Source: Patescibacteria group bacterium
Lineage (GTDB): Bacteria; Patescibacteriota; Microgenomatia; UBA1406
Direction: 5' to 3'
NCBI GenBank assembly: GCA_041665145.1
Contig: JBAYJK010000003.1
Coordinates: 5,177-69,176, forward strand
Length of the DNA: 64,000 nucleotides
The position numbers were made by a program, and so were the translations under genes. Below, one piece after another: positions 10,808 to 54,438 of the stretch. The notes below the pieces were generated by a model, which searched no databases, was not told the DNA's origin, and worked only from the letters and a program-made list of their open reading frames with translations. Positions within the stretch are counted from its first letter, which is position 1. Every line of letters starts with the position of its first letter.

Positions 10808-11785
10808 ATGGTTTTACGAAACACCAAAGAAATCGTCGTCACCGGGTCCATGTCGTGGGACACCATCATGGACTTCCCTTCCCGATTTGTGGACTACCTT
10901 AACCCGGAAAAACTTCACCAGATAAATGTGTCATTTGTCGTCGATAAGTTGGAAAAGCAGATCGGCGGAACGGCAACCAACATTGCATATGCGGCCGCCC
11001 AAACACTTGCCTATTTCCATAAACAAGAAAAATCTGACGGTATAAGCATTAACGTGCTCGGAGGTTTGGGGAAAGATGCGGCCGCCCACCTACGTTTCTT
11101 TAAAAAGCATAAAATAGATACTTCCCGCATCATGATCGACAGGCGGATGTACAGTGCCGCCGGCTCCGTTATTACGGATACGAAAGACAATCAGATTTGG
11201 GGTTTCTATTACGGCGCATCGGTTGCGGCCAAACGGGTTTCTTTAACGGATTTCGTGCCGAAAGAAACGATTATGATTATTTCGGCAAATCATCCCGATG
11301 CCTTTCTTCATTTTCAGGAAGAGTGTATTAAATTCCATATTCCGTATATGTATGATCCCGGCATGGCGTTGTCATGGATAACGGACAAAGATTTGACAGA
11401 GGGTGTTTTAAAGGCAACGTATTTAATAGGAAACGATTACGAAATCGCAATGGTTTTGAAGCGGATAAAGCAAACGGTTTCGTCACTCATGAATGAAGGA
11501 GTAAATATTATTACTACGTTAGGAGACAAAGGGGTGAGATATGAATCGACAACGGAGAAATATGAAATTCCCGCTGTTTCAAACATAGAAGCGGTTGACC
11601 CGACAGGAGCGGGAGACGCCTGGCGCGGAGGGTTTCTTACCGCTCTGACGAATGGAAAACCGGTTAAAGAGGCGCTGATTGTCGGTAACGCGGTTGCAAG
11701 TTTTGCCGTTGAACATTACGGCTGTGTCAATTATCATATAACGGCGAAGGAATTCGAAAAGAGGTCTCAATGTCTGAAGGTCTAA
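10808..11785 (+). CDS. PfkB-family carbohydrate/nucleoside kinase (possible adenosine kinase)
   Basis: 325 aa. It carries the PfkB signature DPTGAGDAWRGGF near the C-terminus. It lies next to ahcY. The last 7 codons and the stop are encoded by repeat R1. Confidence 0.8.
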   Translation: MVLRNTKEIVVTGSMSWDTIMDFPSRFVDYLNPEKLHQINVSFVVDKLEKQIGGTATNIAYAAAQTLAYFHKQEKSDGISINVLGGLGKDAAAHLRFFKKHKIDTSRIMIDRRMYSAAGSVITDTKDNQIWGFYYGASVAAKRVSLTDFVPKETIMIISANHPDAFLHFQEECIKFHIPYMYDPGMALSWITDKDLTEGVLKATYLIGNDYEIAMVLKRIKQTVSSLMNEGVNIITTLGDKGVRYESTTEKYEIPAVSNIEAVDPTGAGDAWRGGFLTALTNGKPVKEALIVGNAVASFAVEHYGCVNYHITAKEFEKRSQCLKV

Positions 11786-11820
11786 ATGTCTGAGAGTCCC
11801 GAGTCGCGGGTCATGGGTCT
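11764..11820. repeat. R1: GTCTRAWT 8-nt phased array (GTCT orientation only)
   Basis: Units are gtctcaat gtctgaag gtctaaat gtctgaga gtcccgag, followed by GC-rich degenerate units. The pfkB stop TAA 11783..11785 lies inside one unit. Confidence 0.85.
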
Positions 11821-11858
11821 AGTTACGCAATGAACTATTATAAATTGCAAAACACAAG

Positions 11859-13124
11859 ATGAAAGAAGCAAAAAAGTTTGATGTTAAGAATATCGGTTTA
11901 GCGGCAGATGGAAAACGTTTGATTGAATGGGCAGAGCGCGATATGCCGGTGCTCCGGATAATTTCCGAGAGATTTATGAAGGTTAAACCCTTTAAGGGTT
12001 TAACCCTTGCCGCATGTCTGCACGTCACGAGTGAAACGGCAAACCTTATGAGAACGTTGAAGGCAGGAGGAGCTAACGTCTACTTGGCTGCGAGCAATCC
12101 CCTTTCCACAAATGATGCCGTTGCGGCTGCCTTGGTGAAAGAATACGGAATTCCGACGTTTGCCATAAAAGGTGAAGATAATAAAACATATTTCAAACAT
12201 CTTAATGCCGTTTTAGACAGCAAACCGAACATGACCATGGATGACGGAGCGGATCTTGTCAGTTTACTTCACACGACACGGAAGGAATTGCTTCCCGGCG
12301 TTGTTGGTTCAAATGAGGAAACGACAACCGGAGTTATTCGGCTCAGAGCGATGGAAAAAGACAACGCGCTCAAAATCCCGGTGCTCGCGGTAAACGATAA
12401 CCTTACGAAACACATGTTCGATAATCAGTACGGTACTGGGCAGTCCACATTAGACGGTGTGATTCGTGCAACAAACGTGTTGCTTGCTGGTAGAAACTTC
12501 GTAGTTGTCGGTTACGGTTGGTGTGGACGTGGCCTGGCCCGACGCGCACAGGGAATGGGCGCGCATGTAATTGTGTGTGAAGTCGATCCGGTAAAAGCGT
12601 TGGAAGCAAATATGGACGGCTACCGAGTTATGCCTCTACTGGACGCCATGGCGGTTGCGGATTTTATCGTCACGGTTACGGGAGACAAGCATGTTATCGA
12701 TGCGGCTCACTTAAAAGCGGCAAAAGACGGTGTGATACTTGCAAACTCCGGACATTTTGATGTCGAGATCAACAAAGTAGCTCTTAAGAAACTGTCTACG
12801 ACTGTACGAGTCGTTCGTCCATTCGTCGAAGAATATACGCTCGGTAAAAAGAAAATATATCTTTTGGCAGAAGGACGTCTTGTAAATCTCGGATCAGCGG
12901 AAGGCCATCCGGCATCCGTTATGGATATGAGCTTCGCAGGCCAGGCACTTGGAGCGGAGTATATGTGGAGCAACCGCGGCAAACTGAAACCGGCGGTTTA
13001 CGCACTCCCTCCGGAAGTTGATGCCCGCATTGCTTCCCTGAAACTGAAGAGTGAAGGTATCAAAATCGATACGCTGACTGCAGAACAGAAGGAATACTTA
13101 AGTTCATGGAAAGAAGGAACGTAG
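11859..13124 (+). CDS. ahcY: Adenosylhomocysteinase
   Basis: 421 aa. Full-length resemblance including the NAD-binding GYGWCGRG and the [11 protein letters not shown] motifs. Confidence 0.95.
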
Positions 13125-13146
13125 GGTTAAGTATAAAGACTAAATG

Positions 13147-13248
13147 AAGTTAGAAAGTTGAAAGCAGAAAGTCTGAAAGTCCGAATGTCTGAATGTCTGA
13201 ATGTCAAATTGTCGACATTAAGACTTTTAGACACTAAGACATTCAGAC
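13147..13248. repeat. R2: palindromic GTCTRAWT/AWTYAGAC element centred on GTCGAC (13211..13216)
   Basis: The left arm is gtctgaaa gtccgaat gtctgaat gtctgaat gtcaaatt. The right arm is attaagac ttttagac actaagac attcagac. It lies between ahcY and pyk. Confidence 0.85.
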
Positions 13249-13272
13249 AGGTGCATTAATGTACTTATAAGT

Positions 13273-13278
13273 TATAAT
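13273..13278 (+). promoter_or_regulatory. -10 box (TATAAT) 6 nt upstream of the pyk ATG; leaderless-type promoter
   Basis: The sequence is gttATAAT...: TATAAT at 13273..13278 and ATG at 13285. There is no room for a Shine-Dalgarno sequence. Confidence 0.5.
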
Positions 13279-13284
13279 ATTCTT

Positions 13285-14718
13285 ATGAATAAATTTACAA
13301 AAATAATCGCAACAATCGGTCCGGCGACTGATGATCCGGAAATGATAGAAAAACTTATCGAAGCAGGTGTTAACATTTTCCGTTATAACTTTAAGCACAA
13401 TACCGTAGAATGGCACAACGAGCGTATCCGCAGAGTGAATGCGGTTTCCAAGAAAATGGGAGTGCATGTGGGAAAACTGATCGATCTTCAGGGACCAGAA
13501 ATTCGTATCAAGATGGCGCAGGATTCCATTACCATTAAAGAAGGTGATGAATTGCTGTTCGATGAATCCATGCTCATAAATAAAGGCCAAGGGTTCTCCA
13601 TTTCGCATCCCAGTATTATTGAGCACATGACGGACGGGCAAAAACTCTTAGCGGATGACGGAAGTTTTACGTTTGTCGTGAAGCGGGAGAAAGGCAAATG
13701 CTACTTGGTAAGCCATTCGGAAGGTGTGTTGAAAAATAACAAGTCCCTCAATATGCCCGGATCTAAGTTCCCTCTTCCTGTTCTTATCGAACGAGATTTT
13801 GACGGTCTCAAACTTGCGCAAATGGGAGAAGTAGATTTTGTGGCCTTGTCGTTTGTCAGGACCAAGGAAGATGTCCTTACCCTTCGAAAAGAAATGAAAA
13901 AACTCGGACTGGTGGCAAAAGTGGTTTCAAAAATAGAAACACAGGTTGCTCTCGACAACTTTGATGAAATTTTGTCGGCGTCTGACGCAATCATGGTTGC
14001 CCGCGGAGACTTGGGTGTTGAAATTCCCATCGAACAGGTACCGTACTATCAGAAAATGATGATCAAACGCTGTTTCCAAAAAGGCGTTTCGGTTATAACC
14101 GCAACACAGATGTTGCAAACCATGATCGATAACCCGTTCCCGACTCGCGCAGAAGTATCTGACGTTGCAAACGCGACATATGATTTTACGGATGCAGTTA
14201 TGCTTTCGGGTGAAACTGCAAGCGGCAAGTACCCTCTGCAGGCGGTAAAGATGATGGCGAAAACCGTTGCGTTCAATGAACAAAAACCGTATGCGGATAC
14301 CCGTTCGCTATACCAATTCGAACTTGGTGATCAGGAGCAGAGACTTTCCGACGCGGCATATAACTTGTATATTCAATCATTGAATGTCGAAAATACCATC
14401 GCCGGGTTTGTGATACTTACCGAAACCGGGAGGACGGCTCAACTGCTTTCCCGCTACCGAGCCAAGGCGCCTATTTTCGCCATTTGTCCCACGAAAAAAG
14501 TAGCCGACACGCTGTCCATCAACTTTGCGGTAACGCCGTTCGTCCGTGACGAAGTCTACTCGAAAGACAAGGAAGTCACGAGTGATGACGTGGTGAAAGT
14601 AATCAGCTACCTGCACAAAAACAAGATTCTCAAAAAAGGGCAGAAAGTTGTGGTTCTCCACGGTGACTACTGGGCGGTTGAAGGCGGAACGAGTACCGTA
14701 AAAATAGTCGAGGTCTAA
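13285..14718 (+). CDS. pyk: Pyruvate kinase
   Basis: 477 aa. TKIIATIGPAT start, MVARGDLGVEIP, and a typical barrel plus C-terminal domain. The stop TAA lies inside the first R3 unit. Confidence 0.95.
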   Translation: MNKFTKIIATIGPATDDPEMIEKLIEAGVNIFRYNFKHNTVEWHNERIRRVNAVSKKMGVHVGKLIDLQGPEIRIKMAQDSITIKEGDELLFDESMLINKGQGFSISHPSIIEHMTDGQKLLADDGSFTFVVKREKGKCYLVSHSEGVLKNNKSLNMPGSKFPLPVLIERDFDGLKLAQMGEVDFVALSFVRTKEDVLTLRKEMKKLGLVAKVVSKIETQVALDNFDEILSASDAIMVARGDLGVEIPIEQVPYYQKMMIKRCFQKGVSVITATQMLQTMIDNPFPTRAEVSDVANATYDFTDAVMLSGETASGKYPLQAVKMMAKTVAFNEQKPYADTRSLYQFELGDQEQRLSDAAYNLYIQSLNVENTIAGFVILTETGRTAQLLSRYRAKAPIFAICPTKKVADTLSINFAVTPFVRDEVYSKDKEVTSDDVVKVISYLHKNKILKKGQKVVVLHGDYWAVEGGTSTVKIVEV

Positions 14719-14808
14719 ATGTCGCGAGTCGCGAGTCTGAATGTCTAAGTGTCTGAATGTCCATTAGTCTGTCAGACAATCAGACGCGTGACGCTCAGAC
14801 GCTTAGAC
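14713..14808. repeat. R3: palindromic GTCTRAWT/AWTYAGAC element
   Basis: The left arm is gtctaaat gtcgcgag tcgcgag tctgaat gtctaagt gtctgaat gtccatta gtct. The right arm is gtcagac aatcagac gcgtgac gctcagac gcttagac. Confidence 0.85.
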
Positions 14809-14811
14809 TGA

Positions 14812-14817
14812 TATAAT
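14812..14817 (+). promoter_or_regulatory. -10 box (TATAAT) 6 nt upstream of the lepA ATG
   Basis: TATAAT at 14812..14817 and ATG at 14824, with no SD. Confidence 0.5.
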
Positions 14818-14823
14818 ACCTTC

Positions 14824-16653
14824 ATGAATGTTTCGAGTATTCGTAATTTTGCCATTATCGCCCATGTTGATCACGGTAAGTCTACTTTGGCTGACCGGCT
14901 TTTGGAATTAACGCATGTCGTTACCCCCGGTAAGCACGATGAACAACTCTTGGATAGAAACCCTATATCACGTGAACGAGGAATAACCATCAAACTGGCA
15001 CCGGTGACGATGAAATACAGAGCACAGTCTAAAAGCCCGCCTGCCGGCGAGGCAGGTCTCAATGTCTCAATGTCCGAAAGTCGACATTTAGACACTCAGA
15101 CATTCAGACCTTCAGATGAGTTTACTCTGAATCTTGTTGATACCCCCGGCCATGTCGATTTTTCGTATGAAGTCGAACGAACCCTGGCGTGTGTAGAGGG
15201 CGTCATTTTACTCGTTGACGCGACCCAGGGGATTCAGGCGCAAACGATTGCACATGCGTACAAAGCACTTGAACAGAACCTGACGATTATTCCCGTTGTG
15301 AACAAAATAGATATGGAAAATGCACAGGTGGATAAAACTATTGCGGAGCTTGTCGAATTCCTGGGAGTGAAACCCGAAGAAGTGTACAAAATCTCGGCCA
15401 AAACCGGCATCGGTGTACAAGAACTTCTTGATGCAGTTATCGAACAAGTACCCCCGCCGTCGGACAGCGAATACCGAAAATCGAACATAGAAACGTTGGA
15501 TCACACCAAGTGTCTGATCTTTGATTCGTACTATGATCCGCACCGCGGAGTTATTGCCTTTGCCCGGGTTTTTAACGGTGAAGTGAAAAAGAATACCAAG
15601 CTGTGGTTACAAGCTACCCAAAAATCTTTTGATGTTATGGAAGTCGGTATTTTTACGCCGGATCTTACGCCTACCGAAACATTGGAAGACGGACAAATCG
15701 GGTACATTGTGACAAACCTGAAAGATATCCATGACGTGCAGGTGGGAGATACTCTCAGCACTATTCAGCGTGATACCATGCTTTCCGGATATCGGAAAGT
15801 AAAACCGATGGTCTACGGTTCCGTGTTTCCGACGGACCCCGACGAATATATCGACTTAAAAAAATCTTTGGAAAAGTTGTATTTAAATGACGCTGCGCTG
15901 ACCTTTGAACCCATTTTCAGCAAGGCGATGGGCGGAGGTTTTCGTATCGGTTTTCTGGGACTACTGCACGCCGACGTTACGCGTGAACGACTTGAACGGG
16001 AATTCGAGCAGAGCTTGGTGCTTACGCCTCCGAAAGTGGAATATGAAAATCATGACGGAACATTTTACGAGCCGTTTGTTTCCGTAACCGTTGTCACTCC
16101 CCAACCCTACATGGGCGGTGTGATGCAGCTTTGCGAAGAATCACGGGCCAGCTATAAACATATGGATAATAAGAACCAGATTATCTTGGTTTATGAAATG
16201 CCTTTGGTGGAACTTATCGGACAGTTCTTCGACCGCTTGAAAAGTATTACGTCGGGGTACGCTTCTCTTGACTGGGAGTTTTTGGAATACCGACCGGTAC
16301 AGGCAGATTACTTGGAAATTCTTTTAAACCTTGAACCGGTGGAAGAGTTTTCCGAGATTGTGGTGCATGAGCGTGCATTCGAACGTGCCCGCGAACTTAC
16401 GAAGAAAATACATGAAATTATTCCCCGACAACAGTACGAAGTGAAAATTCAGGCGCGGTATAAAGGAAAGATTATCGCATCAGAGCGTGTTGCTCCATTT
16501 AGAAAAGATGTTACGGCCAAGCTCTACGGAGGAGACCGCACACGGAAAGACAAGTTGTTGAACAAACAGAAAAAAGGTAAAAAACTCATGAAGAATATCG
16601 GCAAGGTGGAGATTCCAAAAGAAGCATTCATCAAGCTCTTCAAGACGTCCTAA
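14824..16653 (+). CDS. lepA: Elongation factor 4 (LepA) carrying a ~27-aa repeat-derived insertion in the G domain
   Basis: 609 aa. NFAIIAHVDHGKSTL, DTPGHVDF, NKID and the conserved LepA C-terminal domain are present. The segment QSKSPPAGEAGLNVSMSESRHLDTQTFRPSDE has no counterpart in canonical LepA. Confidence 0.95.
   Translation: MNVSSIRNFAIIAHVDHGKSTLADRLLELTHVVTPGKHDEQLLDRNPISRERGITIKLAPVTMKYRAQSKSPPAGEAGLNVSMSESRHLDTQTFRPSDEFTLNLVDTPGHVDFSYEVERTLACVEGVILLVDATQGIQAQTIAHAYKALEQNLTIIPVVNKIDMENAQVDKTIAELVEFLGVKPEEVYKISAKTGIGVQELLDAVIEQVPPPSDSEYRKSNIETLDHTKCLIFDSYYDPHRGVIAFARVFNGEVKKNTKLWLQATQKSFDVMEVGIFTPDLTPTETLEDGQIGYIVTNLKDIHDVQVGDTLSTIQRDTMLSGYRKVKPMVYGSVFPTDPDEYIDLKKSLEKLYLNDAALTFEPIFSKAMGGGFRIGFLGLLHADVTRERLEREFEQSLVLTPPKVEYENHDGTFYEPFVSVTVVTPQPYMGGVMQLCEESRASYKHMDNKNQIILVYEMPLVELIGQFFDRLKSITSGYASLDWEFLEYRPVQADYLEILLNLEPVEEFSEIVVHERAFERARELTKKIHEIIPRQQYEVKIQARYKGKIIASERVAPFRKDVTAKLYGGDRTRKDKLLNKQKKGKKLMKNIGKVEIPKEAFIKLFKTS
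15056..15117. repeat. R4: palindromic GTCT/AGAC element inserted in-frame inside lepA
   Basis: The units are gtctcaat gtctcaat gtccgaaa GTCGAC atttagac actcagac attcagac cttcagat. This is the same architecture and GTCGAC centre as intergenic R2. Confidence 0.85.
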
Positions 16654-16655
16654 TA

Positions 16656-17225: not shown

Positions 17226-17313
17226 AATTATTAGGTCAAATATACTTTATCAGTATTTGATTAAAAAGTTGTGCAAAATTCTGATCATAAGACCCTCTGT
17301 TGTATAATATAGG

Positions 17314-18298: not shown

Positions 18299-18344
18299 TA
18301 ACTGACATGTCAGTTAAAACAACACCTTGAGCGTCGAAAGTCTT

Positions 18345-22622: not shown

Positions 22623-23801
22623 ATGACACAAAAACTTTTTGACGAAAACGCATATCAGGCAGAATTTGAAGCGACTGTCGTTAGTCAAACGCAAACAGAG
22701 CTTGGCTGGGAAGTTGTTTTGGACAAAACGTGTTTCTTCCCCGAAGGCGGTGGACAAGATTCTGATGCAGGAACTTTGAATGGCCAAAAGGTCAAGAAAC
22801 TGGTTAAGACAGATGACGGAGACATAATCCATGTTATGCAAGAAAAAATTGAACAGTCAACCATTATCGGGCAGATAGACTGGAAGAAACGCTTTCGTAA
22901 CATGCAGCAACATTCCGGTCAACACATCCTCTCTGGGGTCCTGCTCAACACATATAAGTTGCAAACGGAATCGGCCAGTTTTACAGAAAAAGAAGGCCAC
23001 ATAACTTTGGAATGGTCAATTCCCGATAACGACTTGGAAAAGGCACTTATCGCGGCAAATGAAATAATATTTGCAAACAAACCCATAATCACGAAATTTA
23101 TATCATTGGATGAAATAGAAAAGTATAATCTTGCGAAGCTTCCTAAAGATAAATTTACGAAAACGGGGAAAATTCGTATCTGGCAGATAGAAGGGTTTTA
23201 TACCATTCCTTGTGGCGGTACGCACTGCAAGTCGACGGGTGAAATCGGAAATATCTTCGTGAAGAGCAATAAAATTCATGGAAATAGGACAGATCTTAAC
23301 TTTACTACGGGTTTCGTAACGCTGGATTATCTGACGGCAACGAAAAAAATTACTTCCGAACTGGCGAAAATGCTGGAAGTTGGTACGGACGGACTTGTTG
23401 ACGCGACGAAGAAAGTTATGGATGACCGGCATGCGTTGAATTTGGCACTGCGTGAAAACCAGGAACAGGTTGCGGCACAAAAAGCAGTGCAGATTTTGCA
23501 AACAGCGACAAAGGGAAAAGTTACGTTTACTGCATTTGTTTACTCGGAAGCAGATAAGGGGACGGTAAAAACAACATTGTATCAGCTTGCAGAAACACCA
23601 AACTCCGTGCATATTGCCCATGGCGCGAATGTTCCCCTAACCGTTGTTAGCTCGAAAGATGTATCTCTAGACACGCTTTCAATACTTACTGAATTAAAAA
23701 CAAAATTCAACGGCAAAGGCGGAGGAAGCAAAACCTATTGGCAAGCGATGATTACGGACCACGAACAATTTGTGAAAGAATTAATGGAAAAATTATCGTA
23801 A
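22623..23801 (+). CDS. alaX: AlaX-L-type alanyl-tRNA editing protein
   Basis: It has HSGQHILS and CGGTHC zinc motifs of the tRNA_SAD editing domain and a C-terminal GKGGGS (DHHA1-like). The start is set at the second ATG (22623), 7 nt after TATAAT 22610..22615. The track start 22614 lies inside that box. Confidence 0.8.
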   Translation: MTQKLFDENAYQAEFEATVVSQTQTELGWEVVLDKTCFFPEGGGQDSDAGTLNGQKVKKLVKTDDGDIIHVMQEKIEQSTIIGQIDWKKRFRNMQQHSGQHILSGVLLNTYKLQTESASFTEKEGHITLEWSIPDNDLEKALIAANEIIFANKPIITKFISLDEIEKYNLAKLPKDKFTKTGKIRIWQIEGFYTIPCGGTHCKSTGEIGNIFVKSNKIHGNRTDLNFTTGFVTLDYLTATKKITSELAKMLEVGTDGLVDATKKVMDDRHALNLALRENQEQVAAQKAVQILQTATKGKVTFTAFVYSEADKGTVKTTLYQLAETPNSVHIAHGANVPLTVVSSKDVSLDTLSILTELKTKFNGKGGGSKTYWQAMITDHEQFVKELMEKLS

Positions 23802-24394
23802 TGAAACGCGTATTTATAATTCATCGCTGGAGCGGAAGCCCGGAAAAAGATTGGCTCCCCTGGCTTGTCCGTTCGATTCAGACCTTGAGACCTTCAGACA
23901 TTCAGACGCATGACTCCTATGAAGTCTTTGTCCCTTCCATGCCCGACCCCGACGTTCCCACTATCGAGAACTGGACCACACATTTAAAACATCTGGTGGG
24001 AAAACTGTTGCCAACGGACGTTTTTATTGGCCACAGTATTGGTTGCCAGACAATTTTGCGGTACTTGGAAAAACTCCCCGCGGGTGAAAAAGCGGACAAA
24101 GTTATTCTGGTTGCACCATTTTTAACCTTAAAAGGTCTCGAGACCGAGGAAGAATTTCGTATTGCTAAACCATGGTTACGTACGCTTATCGACCTGCGCC
24201 GCATACCCGACAAAGCAAATTCCTATACCCTACTCTTTTCGGATAATGATCCGTTTGTTCCCCTGGACGAAAACGTGCAGTTGTTTAAAAAATGGATCAA
24301 TCCGGAAATTCACACACTTCACGACAAAGGTCATTTCACCCAAGATGACGGGATTGTCGAACTTCCTGAGCTCCTGAATTTTCTAAGAATTTGA
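23801..24394 (+). CDS. YdeN/RBBP9-like alpha/beta serine hydrolase with a repeat-derived insertion
   Basis: MKRVFIIHRWSGSPEKDWLPWL start, GHSIG nucleophile elbow, C-terminal DKGHF. The start ATG overlaps the alaX stop (TAATG). The track's 23738 start is an upstream in-frame extension. Confidence 0.7.
   Translation: MKRVFIIHRWSGSPEKDWLPWLVRSIQTLRPSDIQTHDSYEVFVPSMPDPDVPTIENWTTHLKHLVGKLLPTDVFIGHSIGCQTILRYLEKLPAGEKADKVILVAPFLTLKGLETEEEFRIAKPWLRTLIDLRRIPDKANSYTLLFSDNDPFVPLDENVQLFKKWINPEIHTLHDKGHFTQDDGIVELPELLNFLRI
23876..23914. repeat. R5: AGAC-orientation half element in-frame inside the hydrolase gene
   Basis: The units attcagac cttgagac cttcagac attcagac gcatgac encode IQTLRPSDIQTHD. Confidence 0.75.
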
Positions 24395-24500: not shown

Positions 24501-25127
24501 CTATTTAAACACCCAGATATCTTTTTCTTTTGATTTGATAATTTTTCTGTAGATATTCCAATCTTCGGTCATCTTGTCAAAGTATCTGCGAATTGTGCCA
24601 GCTATCATGTCTGCCATTTGTACGAGCACATCTTTAGATGAGTCCCGAAACCTGATGTTCTTCATAACTGTATTGTTGGTGGAGTTCAAATGTTGGCGAA
24701 GATAGGTACTCAGTTGTGTCCGAAACGCCCGCTCACCTCTTCCATCAATGCGAATTTTAGCGTTTCTGATCGTATTATTGTTGTGTTGTAGTATCTGTCG
24801 TAGTGAGAAATTGTAGAAACTTTCTTTGCTTGTTTGTAAATAGGTACTGTAAATCTGTGGTTTGTTAATAACAATAGCTCGAATTTCATATTTGATGTCG
24901 CTAATTGCGTGAAGAAATGCTTCCCGATATGATCTACTACATCCATTAAATTTGAACTCAAATCTGTCTGATTTCTGCAATTTTTGTTTTAAGCGTTTAA
25001 TTCTGATTGCGGCTTCTTCAGCATCTAAATCATTCTTAAAGACTACCAAAGCTATAACAAAATATGGGCTTGATCCCCGTGCAATCTTAAATCCAGGATC
25101 GCCAGATTCATCTATGAAAATAATCAT
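24501..25127 (-). CDS. DUF3800-like protein
   Basis: The N-terminus MIIFIDESGDPGF is typical of DUF3800. The start is set at ATG 25127, 6 nt downstream of TACAAT (reverse complement of 25134..25139). The track's 25178 start would overlap the divergent MazG promoter. Confidence 0.65.
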   Translation of the reverse strand: MIIFIDESGDPGFKIARGSSPYFVIALVVFKNDLDAEEAAIRIKRLKQKLQKSDRFEFKFNGCSRSYREAFLHAISDIKYEIRAIVINKPQIYSTYLQTSKESFYNFSLRQILQHNNNTIRNAKIRIDGRGERAFRTQLSTYLRQHLNSTNNTVMKNIRFRDSSKDVLVQMADMIAGTIRRYFDKMTEDWNIYRKIIKSKEKDIWVFK

Positions 25128-25198
25128 GTGCTGATTGTAACGTATATAAAATAAAGGATAGAAGTGTATAAACACCAAAAGAGGTATAATTTGTTGTC

Positions 25199-30954: not shown

Positions 30955-31054
30955 GTCGCGAGGCAAAATGTCTGATTGTCTAAAGCTATGCGTCTAATTG
31001 TCTGAGTAATATACGTCTGAGAGTCTCAATGTCTGATTGTCTGAATGTCTCAAT
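30955..31054. repeat. R6: GTCT-orientation array (left arm of a split palindrome around 31060..31422)
   Basis: The units are gtcgcgag...gtctgatt gtctaaag...gtctaatt gtctgagt...gtctgaga gtctcaat gtctgatt gtctgaat gtctcaat. Confidence 0.85.
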
Positions 31055-31059
31055 ACCCC

Positions 31060-31422
31060 TCAATGCGCGAGGTACTTTATGAACCTTGAAAGCTTTACTG
31101 AAATACTGATTAACCGTTTTCTCAACTGATCATATGCTTCCGCATTTATATATGAAAGCTTATGAGCGACCAAAAGCTGGGTTCGTACTTCACCCGCGGA
31201 GCCTTTGGCAATATAAAGAAATCTTTTAAAATCCATATCTGATTCTCTTTCAAATCCTTCGGATATATTGGACGGAATTGAAACTGCTGCCCTCCGTATT
31301 TGATCGGTTAATCCATAATCTTTGTGAAAGGAGGTGTAATTGGTTATTGAGTAAACTTTGCCTACAAGTTCAATAGCCTCTTTCCAGATACTAAGATCCT
31401 CAAAGTAACGAATAGTCGGCAT
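31060..31422 (-). CDS. Four-helix-bundle protein (23S rRNA intervening-sequence protein family)
   Basis: 120 aa. FEDLSIWKEAIEL...DQIRRAAVSIPSNISEGFER...FLYIAKGSAGEVRTQL is the family consensus pattern. Confidence 0.85.
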   Translation of the reverse strand: MPTIRYFEDLSIWKEAIELVGKVYSITNYTSFHKDYGLTDQIRRAAVSIPSNISEGFERESDMDFKRFLYIAKGSAGEVRTQLLVAHKLSYINAEAYDQLRKRLISISVKLSRFIKYLAH

Positions 31423-31473
31423 ATGTTTATCTAAGCAGAATCGTCACAATATACAACGGCTTATAAGCATCAC

Positions 31474-31569
31474 ATATCGACATTTAGACACTTAGACAAT
31501 CAGACAATTAGACTCTTTGACACTCAGACACTTGGACAATCAGACAATCAGACTTTGTGACATTTAGAC
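31474..31569. repeat. R7: twelve perfectly phased AWTYAGAC 8-mers (right arm of the split palindrome)
   Basis: The units are atatcgac atttagac acttagac aatcagac aattagac tctttgac actcagac acttggac aatcagac aatcagac tttgtgac atttagac. Confidence 0.9.
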
Positions 31570-31598
31570 TCTTGAGTAATTTTTGTTACAATGTTCTC

Positions 31599-33986: not shown

Positions 33987-34100
33987 GTCATGGATCACGA
34001 GTCACACGTCTAATTGTCTCAATGTCTGAATGTCTGAGCGTCACGAGTCGAGAGTCACGCGTCTCAATGTCAGAATGTCTGAAAGTCTAAATGTCTAATT
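33987..34100. repeat. R8: long GTCT-orientation array between convergent genes
   Basis: The units are gtcatgga tcacgag tcacac gtctaatt gtctcaat gtctgaat gtctgagc gtcacgag tcgagag tcacgc gtctcaat gtcagaat gtctgaaa gtctaaat gtctaatt. The last unit supplies the stop of 34095..34505. Confidence 0.85.
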
Positions 34101-37896: not shown

Positions 37897-37987
37897 GTCT
37901 AAATGTCTAAATGTCTAAGTGTCTAAGTGTCTAAGTGTCTCGGTATTTCTCAGACCTTAAGACATTCGGACAATTAGACCTTCTGAC
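37897..37987. repeat. R9: palindromic GTCTRAWT/AWTYAGAC element between ppa and gyrA
   Basis: The left arm is gtctaaat x2, gtctaagt x3, gtctcggt. The right arm is (ctc)agac cttaagac attcggac aattagac cttctgac. Confidence 0.9.
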
Positions 37988-37990
37988 GTT

Positions 37991-38506
37991 TTAGGCCTTC
38001 AGTCCCTTTTTAACTTCTGCTATAGCAACTTCTTTGCTCATGAACTTTTCTGTCTTAACCCATTTATTGGGTTCGAGTTCTTTGTAGTGGTCAAAGAAAT
38101 GCTTAATCCGGTCGGTAACTGCTGCGGGCAAATCTTCGATGTTCTCATATACGCCGTACAGCGGATCAACTTTTTTTACGGGAACGGCAATAAGTTTGGT
38201 GTCCACACCTTCTTCGTCCTTCATTTCAAGCATTCCGATAAGTTTGCACTTTATCAATGCTCCGGCCATGACGGGTTCGGATGACAAAACCATAATGTCC
38301 TGTGGGTCGCCGTCTTCACCTTTGGTGTTCGGAACAAATCCGTAGTTAAACGGATACTTCATGGCAGTGTATAAAAACCTGTCCGCCATCATAAATCCGG
38401 TCTCTTCATCAATCTCGTATTTAACCATGCTGTCTTTTTCTATTTCAATAAAAGCCAAGAGCTCTGGGAGCTTTGCCGGGTCAAGTTTAATTTTCTTAAA
38501 ATCCAT
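37991..38506 (-). CDS. ppa: Inorganic pyrophosphatase (family I)
   Basis: 171 aa. It has YPFNYGFVPNT and DGDPQDIMVL motifs. Confidence 0.93.
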   Translation of the reverse strand: MDFKKIKLDPAKLPELLAFIEIEKDSMVKYEIDEETGFMMADRFLYTAMKYPFNYGFVPNTKGEDGDPQDIMVLSSEPVMAGALIKCKLIGMLEMKDEEGVDTKLIAVPVKKVDPLYGVYENIEDLPAAVTDRIKHFFDHYKELEPNKWVKTEKFMSKEVAIAEVKKGLKA

Positions 38507-43576: not shown

Positions 43577-45604
43577 ATGAAATTACTTAAACTAAGAGTA
43601 AAGAATTACAAGTCAATTATTGACAGCGGCGAATGCAGTCTTGAAAAAGGAGTGACCATTTTTGCCGGCAAGAACGAAGCGGGGAAAACGGCACTGTTAG
43701 AGGCATTGGAAGATTTTAATCTAAATTCAAAAATAAAGATAGCAGCGGTTCCATTATTCAGGAAAAATAAACAGCCTCAGATTACATTAACATTTGCTGC
43801 TAGTGCATCTGAGCTGAACAATGCTCTGAGAGATTTTGGTCTCCCTCAATTTACAACAGAAACAGAAATAATACTAACAAAAATATATCCTGGCAATACA
43901 TATGTCGTGCCTGATGAGACATTTATTAAATTAGGCATAAAAAATACAACTCTTACAGCCGAAGATGAAAAAGTCCTGAATGAGAAGTATAAACTTATAA
44001 AAGCTGAACTCGAACCGTTTTATCCAGCTATACATCAGCTTTTGCCTGAATTGAATCTTGAAAATCCGGAAATTACTAAAGCTAATTTTCAACAATTTAT
44101 TAGTGCGCCAAAAATTGAGATAACTGATGAAGACTCAAAGTTAACTATTAATTCAATGTCTCAGGACTTTGTTGATGTTCTAAGTATTCCAACTTCAGAC
44201 AGGATACGTGAGAAAATTACTGACGCTTTTACAAGAATAATCCCAACTTTCATACTTTTTAATTCCTTTGAAGACGTGTTTCCATCGACTATAACAATTG
44301 AAGAGGCTGCTAATAGTCCGCTGATGAAAGATCTGGATTTAATTAGTAACCTGAATCTTGATATTCTAAAAAACGGCAATCCTTCGGAGAAGATGGAACA
44401 CAAATTGACACTTAATCAAAGAATGCGAGAGGAGTATCAAAAATATTGGACCCAAGATGTAACTAATCTTCAAGTTGATTATGACAGTGGTAAACTCAAT
44501 TTTTTCATAGTAGAAGATGGTAAATACTACCCTCCCGTTGTTAGGAGCAAGGGTAAACAATGGCATTTGGCTTTCTATATTCGTGTTTCAGCTCGTTCAG
44601 CCGAGGATGTTACGAATATTATTCTTATTGATGAGCCCGGTCTGTTTTTACACGCTACTGCGCAGAAAGATATTCTACGAAAGCTTGAAGACTCTGCTAA
44701 AAGATCTCAAGTAATTTTTACTACTCACTCACCCTACCTTATTGAACAAGACAATTTTATTAGAATACGATTAGTCCAGCGAGGTGTTATTCCGAAGATA
44801 ATCGAACAGAGTTCTCTGGAAGGGAAATTTAATGACAACAAAAATACTTACACAAAGTTAATTGAATTCTACGAAGTGAAGAATCATAAAGATGGCGGGA
44901 ATTATTTTAAGCTTAGAGACAAAGAGTTAAATGAAGACGAAGAAAATGCGATAAGGAACATATTAATTCAGCTTGAATACAACATTGGGACCACTATCGA
45001 AGACAAACTCCATAAGGTTTCGGATAAGGAGACACTAACACCAATATTAACGGCTATTGGACTTGAGCTTACTGATGGAATTAATAGCACCGAAAAAGTT
45101 AGAAACGTTGTATGCGAAGGACTATCTGACGTATTTTATCTTCAAGCGTTTAAGAGACTAATAAACAATGCAGATAACAATTTTATATTTGGGGGAGGCT
45201 CTGGCAATATGCCAATTGTTGGCACTATTTTGTCGGGGTGGGGTTGTAAGATTCTATATCTTTACGATAATGACAAGGGTAAAAAGGATGGAGAAAAAAA
45301 CCTTAAGAAAAATTGGTTAATTACAACAGGGCAAATTCTTTCTGTGGTTGAGAAGATTGGAGGAAGTGTTGAGGATGTCTTTGAACAGGTTGACTTTAAG
45401 AAATTTGTTCTTGAAGATGAAAAAACCTTAATCAAGAAAACTAACTCTGAATACATGAAAGTCGAAGGAAAAGACAAAGTTATGCATGCTAAAAATTTTT
45501 ATCGTTTATGTGAAGCAAACAAGGTTGTTATGTCAGCTACTACTATGAAGAGAATTAAAGTTATTTTTGATGAATTTAGTAAGAGATTTAAGGAAGAATT
45601 CTAG
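43577..45604 (+). CDS. OLD-family / PARIS-like ABC-ATPase-Toprim nuclease
   Basis: 675 aa. The start is MKLLKLRVKNYKSI. It has Walker A GKNEAGKT, signature-like RSKGKQW, Walker B IILIDEPGLFLH, H-loop TTHSP, and a C-terminal Toprim-like VVCEGLSD...LYLYDNDKG. GGAG lies 8 nt upstream of the ATG, and TATAAT at 43549..43554. Confidence 0.75.
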   Translation: MKLLKLRVKNYKSIIDSGECSLEKGVTIFAGKNEAGKTALLEALEDFNLNSKIKIAAVPLFRKNKQPQITLTFAASASELNNALRDFGLPQFTTETEIILTKIYPGNTYVVPDETFIKLGIKNTTLTAEDEKVLNEKYKLIKAELEPFYPAIHQLLPELNLENPEITKANFQQFISAPKIEITDEDSKLTINSMSQDFVDVLSIPTSDRIREKITDAFTRIIPTFILFNSFEDVFPSTITIEEAANSPLMKDLDLISNLNLDILKNGNPSEKMEHKLTLNQRMREEYQKYWTQDVTNLQVDYDSGKLNFFIVEDGKYYPPVVRSKGKQWHLAFYIRVSARSAEDVTNIILIDEPGLFLHATAQKDILRKLEDSAKRSQVIFTTHSPYLIEQDNFIRIRLVQRGVIPKIIEQSSLEGKFNDNKNTYTKLIEFYEVKNHKDGGNYFKLRDKELNEDEENAIRNILIQLEYNIGTTIEDKLHKVSDKETLTPILTAIGLELTDGINSTEKVRNVVCEGLSDVFYLQAFKRLINNADNNFIFGGGSGNMPIVGTILSGWGCKILYLYDNDKGKKDGEKNLKKNWLITTGQILSVVEKIGGSVEDVFEQVDFKKFVLEDEKTLIKKTNSEYMKVEGKDKVMHAKNFYRLCEANKVVMSATTMKRIKVIFDEFSKRFKEEF

Positions 45605-48192: not shown

Positions 48193-48240
48193 AATATATA
48201 TAGAACTAATATGTACTAGTAAAACAATAGCATTTATGAG

Positions 48241-50329: not shown

Positions 50330-50860
50330 TTAAATGCGGTATCGCTGCATTTGCTGAAATATACCGTCACCGTGTTCTCCATTGAAAATGTCAGTCATGT
50401 CAGCCCCGCACGAGAATATATTACCACCTGAGTGATCAAAACGGAATTGGGTTATATCAAACTGCTGACCACGCACGGTAACGATACATCGGTTGTCTAC
50501 AACCGGTTGAGGTGCCGGGGTATCCGCTACGGGGGCCGGAACATCTGCAGCAACGGGAATTTCGGCTATCGGTTGTTGTTCTATCTGCTGAGGCTGAACC
50601 TCCTGCTGCACGGGTTCGGCAGGAACCGTTTCCGTTGAATTTGTCGCCGTTGTTGTTACAGGAGTTGTCGAGCCCATTGAAGAAATCGCTGATTTCAGTA
50701 CGTCAGTTGGAGTGAGGGGAGATTGACTGACTGTTGGCGATGCCAATGCGTTGGTGTTTTTTTGCTTGGTGAGAGTACTTTGCCCAACAACCAGCACGGT
50801 AACTGTCAGGAAATTAAGTAAAACAACCAAAGCGGTGTAGCGGATGATAGAAAGTTTCAT
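50330..50860 (-). CDS. Membrane-anchored protein with a C-terminal cytochrome b5-like (H-S-G-G) domain
   Basis: 176 aa. It has an N-terminal TM helix, a low-complexity linker, and a C-terminal VTVRGQQFDITQFRFDHSGGNIFSCGADMT that resembles the b5 HPGG heme-ligand region. Confidence 0.5.
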   Translation of the reverse strand: MKLSIIRYTALVVLLNFLTVTVLVVGQSTLTKQKNTNALASPTVSQSPLTPTDVLKSAISSMGSTTPVTTTATNSTETVPAEPVQQEVQPQQIEQQPIAEIPVAADVPAPVADTPAPQPVVDNRCIVTVRGQQFDITQFRFDHSGGNIFSCGADMTDIFNGEHGDGIFQQMQRYRI

Positions 50861-52140: not shown

Positions 52141-52148
52141 GATTGTAT

Positions 52149-52514
52149 TCAGCGTAATATTCCGATGACAGAATATTTCTTTTTTATAATTCCCTCCCCC
52201 GCAATATGTAATTCAAAGGAAGCATCCCGTCCGGCAAGGGAATGGTACGGTCCGTTAATTTCATAGTATTTTCTGCCCTGTGACACGTCGTACACATACC
52301 CGTCAAGAGCAAGATATACGGGTTTGTGGGGATCTGTGCCATTATACTGAAGAAGATCGTTTTTTGTAAATACCGGCAGTTTTACCGAGTTCTTCGCCCG
52401 GGATTCTGCCCTGATTTGGCTATTCTGGAAGGCAAGAAACCCGAGCGTAACTGTAGCAGGAAGTACTATTCCTGCTACAATCACTCCCAACAACGGACGG
52501 AAAAACCTTTTCAT
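52149..52514 (-). CDS. Membrane-anchored cytochrome b5-like heme/steroid-binding (MAPR-like) protein
   Basis: 121 aa. It has an N-terminal TM helix, then FTKNDLLQYNGTDPHKPVYLALDGYVYDVSQGRKYY..GPYHSLAGRDASFEL. Confidence 0.7.
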   Translation of the reverse strand: MKRFFRPLLGVIVAGIVLPATVTLGFLAFQNSQIRAESRAKNSVKLPVFTKNDLLQYNGTDPHKPVYLALDGYVYDVSQGRKYYEINGPYHSLAGRDASFELHIAGEGIIKKKYSVIGILR

Positions 52515-52516
52515 GT

Positions 52517-53035
52517 TCAGTTTTCCGACTTGTGTTCGGGAACTTCTGTGGGCTCAGGTCTTTCAGTCGGATGCACCTCTGTCTTGTGTTCTTCTTTCTC
52601 TTCATTGTCCTCCTTTTTTTCCTCGTGTTCATAGAGCTTCTTCGAATCTTCGGTTTCGCTGTCCTCATCCTCATGTTCTTTCGAAATAGGCGTGAGTCGT
52701 GAAACAGCTGTCGATACCGAAGTCGGGACTGCAATACTCGCTTTTGCAGTTGCAGCCGTTGTTAACGAACTAGGGCTTGTTTTTGCCGGACTTGTCGGTT
52801 GTTTGGTCGGACTCGGTTGTGTGACCGCGACTCTCACTGCTGAACGGACGCTTGTCCCCGCCGCAAGCGTTCCCGTCGGCGTCGGCGTGGCAGATACGGT
52901 TCCTGTCGGCTCAGGTTTGTTGGCTTGTACCTGAGGAAGATTCTTTATTATTTTATAACTTGCTACTCCGCTCGTGCCGATCGATGTCGTGATGAATAGC
53001 AGAAGCAGCAGATTTGATCCCAGTTTTTGCAACAT
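52517..53035 (-). CDS. Membrane-anchored low-complexity protein with a His/Glu/Asp-rich tail
   Basis: The start is set at MLQKLGSN (ATG 53035). The track ORF extends to 53110. It has a TM helix, a Thr/Pro/Ala-rich linker, and a C-terminal HEDEDSETEDS...HEEKKEDNEEKEEHKTEVHPTE. Confidence 0.45.
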   Translation of the reverse strand: MLQKLGSNLLLLLFITTSIGTSGVASYKIIKNLPQVQANKPEPTGTVSATPTPTGTLAAGTSVRSAVRVAVTQPSPTKQPTSPAKTSPSSLTTAATAKASIAVPTSVSTAVSRLTPISKEHEDEDSETEDSKKLYEHEEKKEDNEEKEEHKTEVHPTERPEPTEVPEHKSEN

Positions 53036-53110
53036 GGTTTTATGTATTAAATTTATAACAAGTGAAGTGTAAGAAAGAATCATTAAATGTATATTAAGAA
53101 AACAGGACAC

Positions 53111-54310
53111 TTATTCGAAGAATTTTCTGTCTTTCAGTTTGGCTGGCAGAAACGGCAGATCTTTTTTCGGGCCGACATAGTTATCTGACCACGTATAATC
53201 TTTTGCGTATCCGAGGTTTTTCATCAGCTTTGTGGGAGCGTTTCTGAGGTGAAGAGGTATGGGTTCGTTTGGCAGGTCATACACAGCCTGTTTTGCTTTT
53301 TGCATTGCGTTTGCGACTGCCCGGGACTTCGGTGCACGGGCAAGGTAAATTGCAATGTGAGCGAGTGTCAATTGTGCTTCGGGCATGCCGATTTTATGTA
53401 CTGCCTCAAAGCCGGCATTTGCCTGAATAAGTGCTCCGCGGTCTGCCAAGCCGATATCTTCAGACGCAAAAATAACCATCCGTCGGGCAATGAACTTCGG
53501 ATCCTCACCATTCTCCAGCATGCGCATCAGATAATACAATGTACCGTCGACACTGCTGCCGCGCATGGACTTGATGAATGCACTGATAATATTGTAGTGT
53601 TCATCCGCCTTTTTGTCGTACAGCCCTGCTGACTTGGTTTGAAAAATATCCTGGACGGTTACCTCGGATATTTTCTTTTCTTTATAGGTAGTAACTGCCA
53701 TCTCGAGAGCATTCAACATAATACGTGCATCTCCGCCTGAAAGGCGTATGAGCAATTCTTCAGCTTGTGGGGTTATGGTTTTTTTGTACTTCCCTACTCC
53801 GTTTACCGTATCCGTTAAGGCACGGTTTATCAGACTGGAAAGTTGTAGAGGTTCGAGGGGTTGCAGAACAAATACCTTGCAGCGGGAAAGAAGGGCTGAG
53901 ATTACCTCAAAGGACGGGTTTTCCGTTGTTGCTCCGATAAGCGTGATGAGTCCCCGTTCGACATGCGGAAGCAATACATCTTGCTGCGCTTTATTCCAGC
54001 GATGGATTTCGTCTATAAACAAAATGGTCTTTTTTTGAAACAACTCATTTTCACGGGCTTTGTTTACGATTTCGACAAGATCCGCTTTGCCGCTCGATAC
54101 ACCGGACAGCATATGAAAGTCGGCGTCTGTTGCTTTGGCAATAAGATACGCAAGTGTGGTCTTGCCGCTTCCCGGAGGACCCCAGAACAATAGGGACACG
54201 AGTGTTTTACTTTCGATCATTTTTCGGAGGATTCCCTTTTTTCCGGCAAGATGATCCTGACCCACCAGATCATCAAGCGTTTGCGGTCGCATGCGATATG
54301 CAAGATTCAT
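53111..54310 (-). CDS. rarA: Replication-associated recombination protein A (MgsA/RarA AAA+ ATPase)
   Basis: 399 aa. It has GPPGSGKTT, FIDEIHRWNKAQQD and a conserved MgsA C-terminal domain. Confidence 0.9.
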   Translation of the reverse strand: MNLAYRMRPQTLDDLVGQDHLAGKKGILRKMIESKTLVSLLFWGPPGSGKTTLAYLIAKATDADFHMLSGVSSGKADLVEIVNKARENELFQKKTILFIDEIHRWNKAQQDVLLPHVERGLITLIGATTENPSFEVISALLSRCKVFVLQPLEPLQLSSLINRALTDTVNGVGKYKKTITPQAEELLIRLSGGDARIMLNALEMAVTTYKEKKISEVTVQDIFQTKSAGLYDKKADEHYNIISAFIKSMRGSSVDGTLYYLMRMLENGEDPKFIARRMVIFASEDIGLADRGALIQANAGFEAVHKIGMPEAQLTLAHIAIYLARAPKSRAVANAMQKAKQAVYDLPNEPIPLHLRNAPTKLMKNLGYAKDYTWSDNYVGPKKDLPFLPAKLKDRKFFE

Positions 54311-54354
54311 GGTGAAAACATTTTAGCACTTTTTAAAGTTGCAAGTGAATGATC

Positions 54355-54438
54355 GTTCACCTGTCACATGTCGCGCGTCACGGGTCACGAGTCTAAGAGT
54401 CTGAATGTCTGAATGTCTGAATGTCTAAGTGTCTAGGG
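54355..54438. repeat. R10: GTCT-orientation array between the NUDIX gene and rarA
   Basis: The units are gtcacat gtcgcgc gtcacgg gtcacga gtctaaga gtctgaat x3 gtctaagt gtctaggg. The last unit supplies the NUDIX stop codon (reverse complement of CTA 54433..54435). Confidence 0.9.

Follow-up and report, generated by a model that had tools for sequence, protein, structure and literature searches.

Dispersed phased arrays of 7- and 8-nt units in a Patescibacteria contig and their link to a PF05635 (S23p/Avd-like) gene enclosed by inverted arms

What kind of element leaves tandem arrays of one short, degenerate unit scattered between, and in places inside, the genes of a small bacterial genome? The question is raised by a 64,000-nt stretch of a Patescibacteria group bacterium (assembly GCA_041665145.1, contig JBAYJK010000003.1, positions 5,177 to 69,176 of the forward strand; hereafter the window), where the unit GTCTRAWT, or its reverse complement AWTYAGAC, is repeated at ten loci (R1 to R10). 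One pair of these arrays, R6 and R7, is inverted around a gene of the PF05635/TIGR02436 family, whose S23p members are encoded in the intervening sequences (IVSs) of 23S ribosomal RNA (rRNA). From direct observation of the arrays' anatomy, enrichment, gene link, folds, lineage specificity, in-frame copies, concordant polarity and arm turnover, we lean, with confidence only a little above even, towards the arrays being stem arms of IVS-type elements and their gene-less derivatives.

The arrays are strongly enriched over a compositional null. Where 50 dinucleotide shuffles yield on average 0.34, and never more than 2, runs of three or more GTC or GAC triplets spaced exactly 8 nt apart, the window has 15; GTCTNANTGTCTNANT, that is, two consecutive GTCTNANT units, matches 25 times against 0 in 100 shuffles; and Tandem Repeats Finder independently calls period-8 arrays at 10/10 loci. 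All ten lie at or within a few bases of where the initial annotation, made by a model from the letters alone, had placed them, and its hand count of some 80-90 units comes close to the ~95 that we obtain from chains with 7- or 8-nt steps (67 eight-nt and 15 seven-nt unit steps, plus terminal units). In the logo of the 8-nt unit, GTC-T-R-A-W-T, the G, T and C are fixed by detection, but T4 (57/67) and A6 (66/67) are not imposed by it; position 5 is R, position 7 is W or G, and T8 is found in 49/67. The GC-rich variants that had been seen flanking the arrays are present and resolve into a separate 7-nt unit, GTC-R-C-G-N (GTCRCGN), usually set as a block at the arm's outer end, and the arms have in common an order of 7-mers outside and 8-mers inside, the latter commonly in blocks of 4-6 units. 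Longer blocks recur as well: GTCACGA-GTCTAAGA-GTCT is common to R10 and an arm at +67824 outside the window, the first 19 nt of R10 from GTCACGA being identical to that arm, and GTCTGAGC-GTCACGC-GTCTGA is common to R3 and an arm at -389.

Just beyond the window, the ~18 kb of flanking contig sequence contain four more members of the family, so that a locus is met every 6 kb or so. An assembly artefact is not the explanation, since several independent assemblies contain the contig and its proteins as well. The nearest LepA relatives belong to Roizmanbacteria and other Microgenomates at no more than 65-67% identity, and a lepA-based scan of metagenome contigs gave a best match of 62% identity and no strain-level relative. 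Among the called genes over the ~82 kb of window and flanks, which is also the scope of the gene absences given below, there is no transposase, reverse transcriptase, recombinase, cas or RAYT gene. At gathering thresholds no Rfam family falls on any array in the window; the Rfam content of the window consists of three tRNAs and one DUF3800-IX RNA (RF02968; 24431-24501, plus strand, 63 bits against a gathering threshold of 36.8), which adjoins a DUF3800 gene on the minus strand (24501-25178). We found no description of Patescibacteria arrays of this kind in the literature searched, the coverage of which is incomplete, so that an earlier account is possible. The loci are collected in Table 1.

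Table 1. Array loci R1 to R10 and the PF05635 gene in the window (window coordinates)
Feature	Coordinates	Strand	Description
R1	11764-11824	+	Solo GTCT-sense arm: four 8-nt units, then GTCCCGA GTCGCGG GTCATGG (7-nt), then GTCTAGTT
R2	13147-13253	.	Gene-less palindrome, AdoHcy hydrolase/pyruvate kinase spacer; GTCT arm left, AGAC arm right; centre GTCGAC
R3	14713-14813	.	Gene-less palindrome, pyruvate kinase/lepA spacer; 7-nt GTCGCGA units near base; fold z -3.8
R4	15027-15117	.	Palindrome inside lepA (14824-16653), in frame, stop-free; fold z -2.9; centre GTCGAC
R5	23876-23919	-	Solo arm, AGAC-sense on + strand, inside serine hydrolase gene 23801-24394
R6	30955-31054	+	Left cassette arm; GTCGCGA first, then 8-nt units with two short interruptions
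PF05635/TIGR02436 gene	31060-31422	-	120-aa 'four helix bundle' protein (S23p; Avd-like) between R6 and R7
R7	31474-31574	-	Right cassette arm, 12 units, AGAC-sense on + strand
R8	33987-34100	+	Two direct module copies (three 7-nt GC-rich, then 4-5 8-nt units), between convergent genes
R9	37897-37992	.	Gene-less palindrome, gyrA/inorganic pyrophosphatase spacer (both genes minus strand); loop 9-13 nt
R10	54355-54438	+	Solo arm: GTCACAT GTCGCGC GTCACGG GTCACGA (7-nt), then six 8-nt units

The anatomy is most telling at R6 and R7. The initial annotation had described four head-to-head palindromes (R2, R3, R4 and R9), which we confirm, although a GTCGAC centre is found only at R2 and R4, and had taken all other loci for single arms. 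R6 and R7 are instead the two inverted arms of one composite element, and the gene that they enclose had gone unnoticed; R8, too, is more than a single arm and consists of a module present twice in direct orientation, each time with a 7-mer block ahead of an 8-mer block. The product of the enclosed gene is a full-length PF05635 protein (Pfam E 1.3e-38, profile positions 1-105 of 106; TIGR02436 E 2.4e-37), with PDB 2GSC (five chains) as the closest solved structure (E 5.5e-23). The arms, ~100 nt and 9-12 units each, are built from the same unit family as the dispersed copies, and the remaining array copies in the window are without an ORF (open reading frame). When the 631-nt cassette is folded, R7 pairs with R6 in both the minimum-free-energy and the centroid structures (dG -182 kcal/mol, z -5.0), and when the 120-nt flanks on the two sides of each gene are compared for complementarity, this gene (score 45) comes first of the 58 in the window. 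The cassette lies between protein-coding genes, R7 falling within a divergent promoter region. The protein returned no matches in PADLOC and PHROGs, and none of 24 viral contigs with arrays of at least four GTCT units carries a PF05635 ORF; the protein is without a close viral relative.

The closest homolog of this protein, at 63% identity, comes from the orthologous locus (L215) of a related Patescibacteria genome, where the neighbouring hypothetical protein and Mur ligase are 61% and 66% identical to those of the window and the downstream promoter, TTGTTACAATGTTCTCGTG, is the same. There the cassette (L215 1221-1840 vs. 30955-31574 in the window) is inverted relative to the conserved downstream promoter, which would be the expected product of recombination between inverted arms, and both arms consist of a 7-nt unit (ATCACGS / SCGTGAT) in place of the 8-nt GTCT units. 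Because the arms have switched unit and yet stayed complementary, the stem matters, at least for the gene-carrying copy. The array at the position of R8, after the Mur ligase stop codon, is shorter in L215 (5 units vs. 13 or more in the window). In a comparable case between two Bacteroidota genomes, the PF05635 protein encoded between sufB and sufC is 76% identical and SufB 78%. To judge from these identities the PF05635 gene is an old, vertically inherited resident evolving at its neighbours' rate, since 63% stands beside 61-66% in one case and 76% beside 78% in the other. Immediately downstream of the PF05635 gene, one of two near-identical Bacteroidota strains has two more copies of a 75-nt module than the other (L216 10374-10530 vs. 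L221 10374-10680).

The association between the gene and such arms is general. A pattern scan of genome contigs had yielded mostly generic 8-mer repeats from many phyla, with no clean taxonomic signal before PF05635 ORFs were searched for. Among 120 loci (~0.84 Mb) chosen only by a GTCTNANT x3 pattern, a local profile search found five PF05635 ORFs, four of them abutting the array (4/120), with an inverted partner arm wherever the far side is on the contig: this is the case in Saprospiraceae (L021), Geomesophilobacter (L057) and Crocinitomicaceae (L084), and in a Bacteroidetes locus (L005) the far side lies beyond the locus end. The fifth ORF, also from Crocinitomicaceae (L107), has inverted flanking arms of its own, ~3.4 kb from the array by which the locus was selected. 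No PF05635 ORF was found in 0.9 Mb of lepA-selected loci. We also took the opposite direction and chose 16 loci by the protein alone, ten plasmid-borne homologs found by tblastn and six contigs obtained by exact-protein look-ups. A strict tandem-array detector missed irregular arrays (GGGAAAA-type, of variable length) and was replaced by the flank-complementarity score set against a background distribution: 9/16 loci score at least 29, where 400 background genes have a 99th percentile of 24 and a maximum of 30 (Mann-Whitney p = 8e-4 for the first 13 loci).

The units of these flanking inverted arrays differ from genome to genome: GGGAAAA in Nostoc, AAGGTTYA in Riemerella, GGAGATAA in Picosynechococcus, GGTGACA in Anabaena sp. 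90 (~40 units on one side), GGCAGAA in Stanieria, GGGCAGGA in Gemmatirosa (with a score at background), 7-8-nt units in Leptolyngbya, and ACAGATT and AAGTCNNN in two Bacteroidota, the ACAGATT of the L222 arms being the unit of the Coxiella GACAGAT heptamers. In Pseudanabaena the AAAAGCY arrays are direct and not inverted, and Calothrix and Nostoc 7120 show the pattern only weakly. The shortest arms have 3 units and the longest 23 or more; in a matrix of protein identities only close pairs (79% and 72%) share units, with no long-range clustering of GTCT-type units. That the related genomes each have a unit of their own, set in the same architecture, had escaped the initial annotation. Several of the genes intrude in operons, as in cas6-[ ]-cas4, cas10-[ ]-cmr3, sufB-[ ]-sufC and ispF-[ ]-cysE (L206, L209, L210, L216, L221, L222 and L223), a position that may explain why '23S rRNA IVP' figures, in a legend entry, among the CRISPR-linked genes of a large clustering screen (PMC10910872). 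As an observation apart, the Anabaena sp. 90 plasmid pANA02 (L220), where a ~300-nt GGTGACA-type array flanks the stand-alone PF05635 gene (44699-45003), also holds a 9-nt array, TTCATCCTG x4.4 (10137-10176), between a bona fide avd gene of a diversity-generating retroelement (DGR) and its reverse transcriptase.

How do the gene-less copies relate to the cassette? Of the six gene-less palindromes, four are in the window; the other two lie beyond it, one near -1900 and one within a GT2 glycosyltransferase gene near -5770. In every one the GTCT arm precedes the AGAC arm, as it does in the cassette itself. A Crocinitomicaceae metagenome-assembled genome behaves likewise with the opposite polarity, its cassette (L084) and its gene-less palindrome (L101) both reading AGAC then GTCT. 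The palindromes of the window fold well (R2: dG -34.8, z -5.5; R9: z -6.5 and -5.3 on the two strands), and ~80% of the positions in their arms can pair if G-U is included, roughly 6.4 of 8 per unit and thus somewhat better than the 5-6 of 8 first estimated. The solo arms are less structured than shuffles (z +1 to +3). Gene-less palindromes of the form (AGAC-type 8-mer)n...(GTCT-type 8-mer)n with 15-100-nt centres were also seen in other phyla, in Caldilineales/Caldilineaceae (L012, L078, L029), in Verrucomicrobiota (L044, L108) and at L026, L059 and L118; their polarity is opposite to that of the window, and no PF05635 gene lies within the 8-kb loci. A second phased palindromic family is present in the window itself, an AT-rich array of ~7-8-nt units (ACAAAT.. 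/ ..ATTTGT) at 57555-57690, centred near 57617, between ruvA (56956-57534, minus strand) and ruvC (57689-58174, minus strand); its hairpin has z -6.9 on the plus and -6.6 on the minus strand, and it resembles the AT-rich arrays of a relative (L123, 6070-6232).

Three copies are translated, which had not been noticed: R4 and R5 both lie inside coding sequences, and a full palindrome sits in frame and stop-free inside the GT2 glycosyltransferase gene just outside the window. R4 adds ~30 residues (QSKSPPAGEAGLNVSMSESRHLDTQTFRPSD) in frame to a loop of LepA between 'MKY' and 'LNLVDTPGH', and its left-arm units, GTCTCAAT, avoid TGA and TAA. The translation of R5, ..SIQTLRPSDIQT.., separates two conserved segments of the serine hydrolase's PF06821 domain, whose match (residues 5-195) extends to both sides of the insert. 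In LepA, serine hydrolase and GT2 glycosyltransferase alike the AGAC-sense arm reads ..(S)DIQT(L/F)RPSD... The left arm of R4 also contains a nested 21-nt GC-rich mini-hairpin, GCCCGCCTGCCGGCGAGGCAG (15035-15055), between a GTCTAAAA unit and the next GTCT units, and R6 has two similar short interruptions (GCTATGC and AATATAC); these may have been inserted into the arrays at a later stage.

At the R4 loop roughly half of the 60 closest LepA homologs are without an insert, and the rest have inserts of unrelated sequence. In the three relatives whose DNA was examined, the insert consists of short-period repeat units: AGTCCGA/AGTCGAA x7 with period 7 in L124, an AATAACC / AAATTCC ... TTGGAGC palindrome in L123, whose units recur in the other arrays of that locus, and CGAAT-type 8-mers in L122. 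The pyruvate kinase-lepA spacer is 27-30 nt long and array-free in L122 and L124. Because of these array-free spacers and unrelated lepA inserts in the relatives, the arrays are lineage-specific gains, and copies within a genome share their unit, in the window as in L123.

The positions of the arrays relative to stop codons hold up as first described. Counting those outside the window, 11/14 loci are intergenic; most start 0-8 nt from, or contain, the upstream stop codon, and 5/6 intergenic solo arms start 0-8 nt after it in GTCT sense. As read from the sequence, the GTCT-sense strand offers TGA or TAA in all three frames within three units, and flanking ORFs consequently find their stops inside array units: the TAA of the upstream PfkB-family gene (11783-11785) in the third unit of R1, that of pyruvate kinase (14716-14718) in the first unit of R3, and, in the last units of R8 and R10, the stops of a minus-strand gene (34095-34097) and of the minus-strand NUDIX gene (54433-54435), respectively. 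R8 itself begins 3 nt past the Mur ligase stop. A role of the arrays as sources of -35-like boxes (TTAGACA vs. TTGACA) was considered and set aside: only R3 and possibly R7 fit, and the role is not a general one because R6 and R8 lie in convergent regions. In the right arm of R3 (14788-14817) a -35-like GTGACG is followed, after 18 nt, by a TG-extended TATAAT just before lepA, with 10 of 12 matches the best such site in 11-16 kb. Very short leaders are suggested by several genes whose starts lie no more than ~10 nt from a -10-like box.

The reading that we lean towards would join these observations as follows. The one complete copy is that at 30955-31574, with its two inverted GTCTRAWT / GTCRCGN arms around the PF05635 gene and its place between protein genes, and the dispersed copies would be its gene-less derivatives, either head-to-head palindromes of cassette polarity or solo arms, descended from the cassette arms. 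Arms would change by slippage, recombination and gene conversion, such that unit number and type turn over with complementarity kept. New copies would arise at the DNA level and persist in intergenic DNA, at ORF 3' ends, with TGA/TAA provided in every frame by the GTCT-sense arm, and in protein loops permissive enough for them to stay open and translated. Where both arms are transcribed, a long imperfect double-stranded RNA stem would form, and by analogy with rRNA IVSs we infer that it would be an RNase III substrate by which transcripts are processed or insulated; the PF05635 protein would act on its own repeat arms.

A number of results weigh against such a reading. The solo arms R1, R5, R8 and R10 cannot form a stem and yet keep the motif. 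At the variable positions 4, 5, 7 and 8 of the palindromes, pairing amounts to 62%, compared with 59 +/- 4% when unit partners are shuffled (P = 0.32, 13 unit pairs), with no sign of compensatory arm-to-arm change in these pairs; for want of covariation at variable positions, something besides pairing constrains the unit. The PF05635 gene looks to be inherited vertically and under purifying selection, which argues against a freely mobile cassette. In other phyla, 115/120 array-selected loci have no PF05635 gene within 8 kb, and since the unit of the pANA02 cassette is found only at that cassette, the wide dispersal of gene-less arrays is not general but belongs to some genomes, this one among them. 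Nor is there a transposase, reverse transcriptase or recombinase among the called genes to account for the spread. The first suggestion that the arrays are a phased signal rather than a simple hairpin thus stands in part: the GTC register, T4 and A6 are far better conserved than the pairing, arms do not covary and solo arms are unfolded, but the stem does matter for the copy that carries the gene.

Motif conservation without covariation and the persistence of solo arms would be explained by the main rival, which overlaps with and complements the IVS-type reading and which we regard as a serious though distinctly less probable account: the arrays would be phased binding sites for an oligomeric protein, the PF05635 protein being the candidate, with the hairpin a by-product of head-to-head arrays. 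A homopentameric ring, the form of the solved relatives, could have single-stranded RNA or DNA wound around it with some five tandem units bound, much as GAG repeats are bound by TRAP. GTC, T4 and A6 hardly vary, variable positions have random pairing partners, the motif is kept in unstructured solo arms, and 8-nt blocks commonly count 4-6 units; the protein is linked to arrays across phyla and conserved like a housekeeping gene. Avd proteins bind RNA together with their reverse transcriptases. The PF05635 protein is a homolog of Avd (PMC10053308), the matched structure 2GSC has five chains, the Xanthomonas S23p is described as a homopentameric toroid (PMC4990558), and a study in Nostoc postulates a protein that binds GAC(C/T)AAT heptamer arrays (bioRxiv 10.1101/2022.06.06.494920). 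Against direct recognition, unit sequence and protein phylogeny part ways at long range: the proteins found beside GTCT-type units are only 16-46% identical to one another, whereas one beside GGGAAAA units is 45% identical to that of the window. Arms vary from 3 to 23 or more units, and a single gene per ~82 kb would have to serve ~14 loci.

The position of the arrays at gene ends could also mean that they are host punctuation, that is, terminators or 3'-stabilising hairpins akin to repetitive extragenic palindromic (REP) sequences and bacterial interspersed mosaic elements (BIMEs), combined with three-frame stops. The intergenic placement of 11/14 loci, most of them at or over upstream stops, the stops in every frame of the GTCT-sense arm and the stability of the palindromes (z -3 to -6.5) agree with this; we nonetheless consider it improbable, as none of the stems is followed by a U-tract, R7 is part of a divergent promoter region, ORFs enclose three copies, solo arms are unfolded, and the orthologous intergenic regions of relatives are array-free at 27-30 nt. 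Intrinsic terminators in particular are rejected: nothing at R1-R4 was called terminator-like in a scan of 11000-16000, and there is no T-run after the R2, R3 and R9 stems. Still less credible is that the arrays are neutral, minisatellite-like slippage products, independent at each site, functionless and unrelated to PF05635. Unit number and composition do vary among loci and relatives, as does the number of Coxiella heptamers between strains (PMC4990558), but the same degenerate motif with position-specific conservation recurs at 14 loci, palindrome polarity is constant (6/6), module order and multi-unit blocks are shared, the PF05635 association spans phyla, and 15 runs stand against the 0.34 expected. 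We give practically no credence to a CRISPR-like or TIGR-Tas-like system in which the arrays would encode guide RNAs. For TIGR-Tas, phages and parasitic bacteria are reported to have tandem arrays whose repeats are poorly conserved (PMC12045711); the arrays here have a spacer-free period of 7-8 nt, form palindromes and lie in part inside ORFs, no Cas or Nop-domain (Tas) protein is among the called genes, and the possibility is rejected on period, lack of spacers and lack of associated genes. A DGR is likewise rejected, there being no RVT-family gene among the called genes.

Beyond the window, we tentatively propose, as a broader idea that we hold to be somewhat more doubtful still than the binding-site account, that PF05635 proteins and inverted phased 7-8-nt arrays make up one widespread, hitherto unrecognised nucleic-acid-protein module, in which the ring would bind its own arms in a TRAP-like manner and control stem processing, recombination, fold-back copying or spread; 23S IVSs, short tandemly repeated repetitive (STRR) arrays, the cassettes in cas and suf operons and the Patescibacteria arrays would be its manifestations. 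We found no general statement of PF05635 genes flanked by inverted short tandem arrays in the literature, again with incomplete coverage. If true, the proposal would provide the first function for a protein family that has been an orphan since the 1990s, would tell where orphan short-period repeat arrays come from, and would place three puzzles in one frame: the origin of 23S rRNA IVSs, the role of stand-alone S23p/Avd-like proteins and the nature of STRR-like arrays. A causal link would further explain the PF05635 genes in cas and suf operons and their CRISPR-associated scoring in large screens (the legend entry in PMC10910872), as well as the odd low-complexity inserts in conserved Patescibacteria proteins. 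In this tiny Patescibacteria genome the arms are scattered even into the essential translation factor LepA, and the function of a 30-year-old orphan protein family becomes directly testable.

Among known systems, intergenic hairpin repeats that are transcribed into mRNAs offer a functional analogy. REP/BIME elements are imperfect palindromes of some 20-40 nt that depend on RAYT (IS200/IS605-like) transposases; Correia (NEMIS) elements have 26-bp terminal inverted repeats together with TA duplications, and RNase III acts on their hairpins, with an effect on mRNA stability. REP, BIME and Correia elements are all fixed in length and sequence. The arrays described here are variable-length arrays of units, with no RAYT-type Pfam family among the called genes. 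Miniature inverted-repeat transposable elements are of defined length, end in inverted repeats, are bordered by target-site duplications and are related to a parent that encodes a transposase; in our arrays neither length nor sequence is fixed, element ends are not sharply delimited, and no transposase is nearby. The initial annotation had found no match to REP/BIME, CRISPR or classical terminators, and without spacers, T-tracts or Rfam matches this judgment stands. A catalogued type of matching architecture does exist, namely the inverted-repeat stems of 23S rRNA IVSs with an S23p/PF05635 ORF.

Rickettsia palindromic elements resemble the arrays in behaviour only, as palindromic repeats inserted in frame and translated, in an unrelated host. 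They are said to be 100-150-bp elements of defined sequence, without short tandem substructure, that are inserted in frame and translated as extra loops, and we know of no gene associated with them. In-frame insertion into protein genes is found here in lepA, the serine hydrolase and the GT2 glycosyltransferase. The STRR sequences of cyanobacteria, in the sense in which the term is reportedly defined, are tandem arrays of 7-nt units dispersed in intergenic DNA, with a genome-specific consensus; our arrays resemble them in being tandem and dispersed, and PF05635 genes on Nostocales plasmids are flanked by such heptamer arrays. Nostoc 7120, for instance, has GAC(C/T)AAT x8, with a GAC core, upstream of recO (bioRxiv 10.1101/2022.06.06.494920). 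The arrays of the window differ in phylum (the host being a member of Patescibacteria), in their main period of 8 with a minority 7-nt unit and in their three copies in coding sequence, and the constant head-to-head palindromes and the PF05635 link are, to our knowledge, no part of the STRR description. The Avd proteins of DGRs form a homologous four-helix-bundle, pentamer-forming family (PMC10053308; PDB match), whereas around our gene there is no reverse transcriptase, template repeat or variable repeat within ~40 kb on either side.

The closest likeness is to the S23p-type IVSs of Coxiella burnetii, Leptospira and Brucella, in which a PF05635 gene is enclosed by terminal inverted repeats that form a long stem. 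The Coxiella IVS has an S23p ORF, a 28-bp terminal stem that RNase III cuts at the first repeat, and two or three tandem GACAGAT heptamers, strain-variable in number, in the 5' part of the stem (PMC4990558). The cassette differs in lying outside rRNA, between protein genes (in other phyla inside operons), in its arms of ~100 nt (9-12 units) compared with the 28-bp stem, and in that its arms are also dispersed as gene-less palindromes, as solo copies and in frame in proteins. No rRNA gene is present in the window, the cassette does not sit in a helix of a 23S rRNA gene, and we do not file it as a member of the class. With its PF05635 gene and the enclosing inverted-repeat stem, the complete copy is nevertheless like an S23p-type IVS in architecture.

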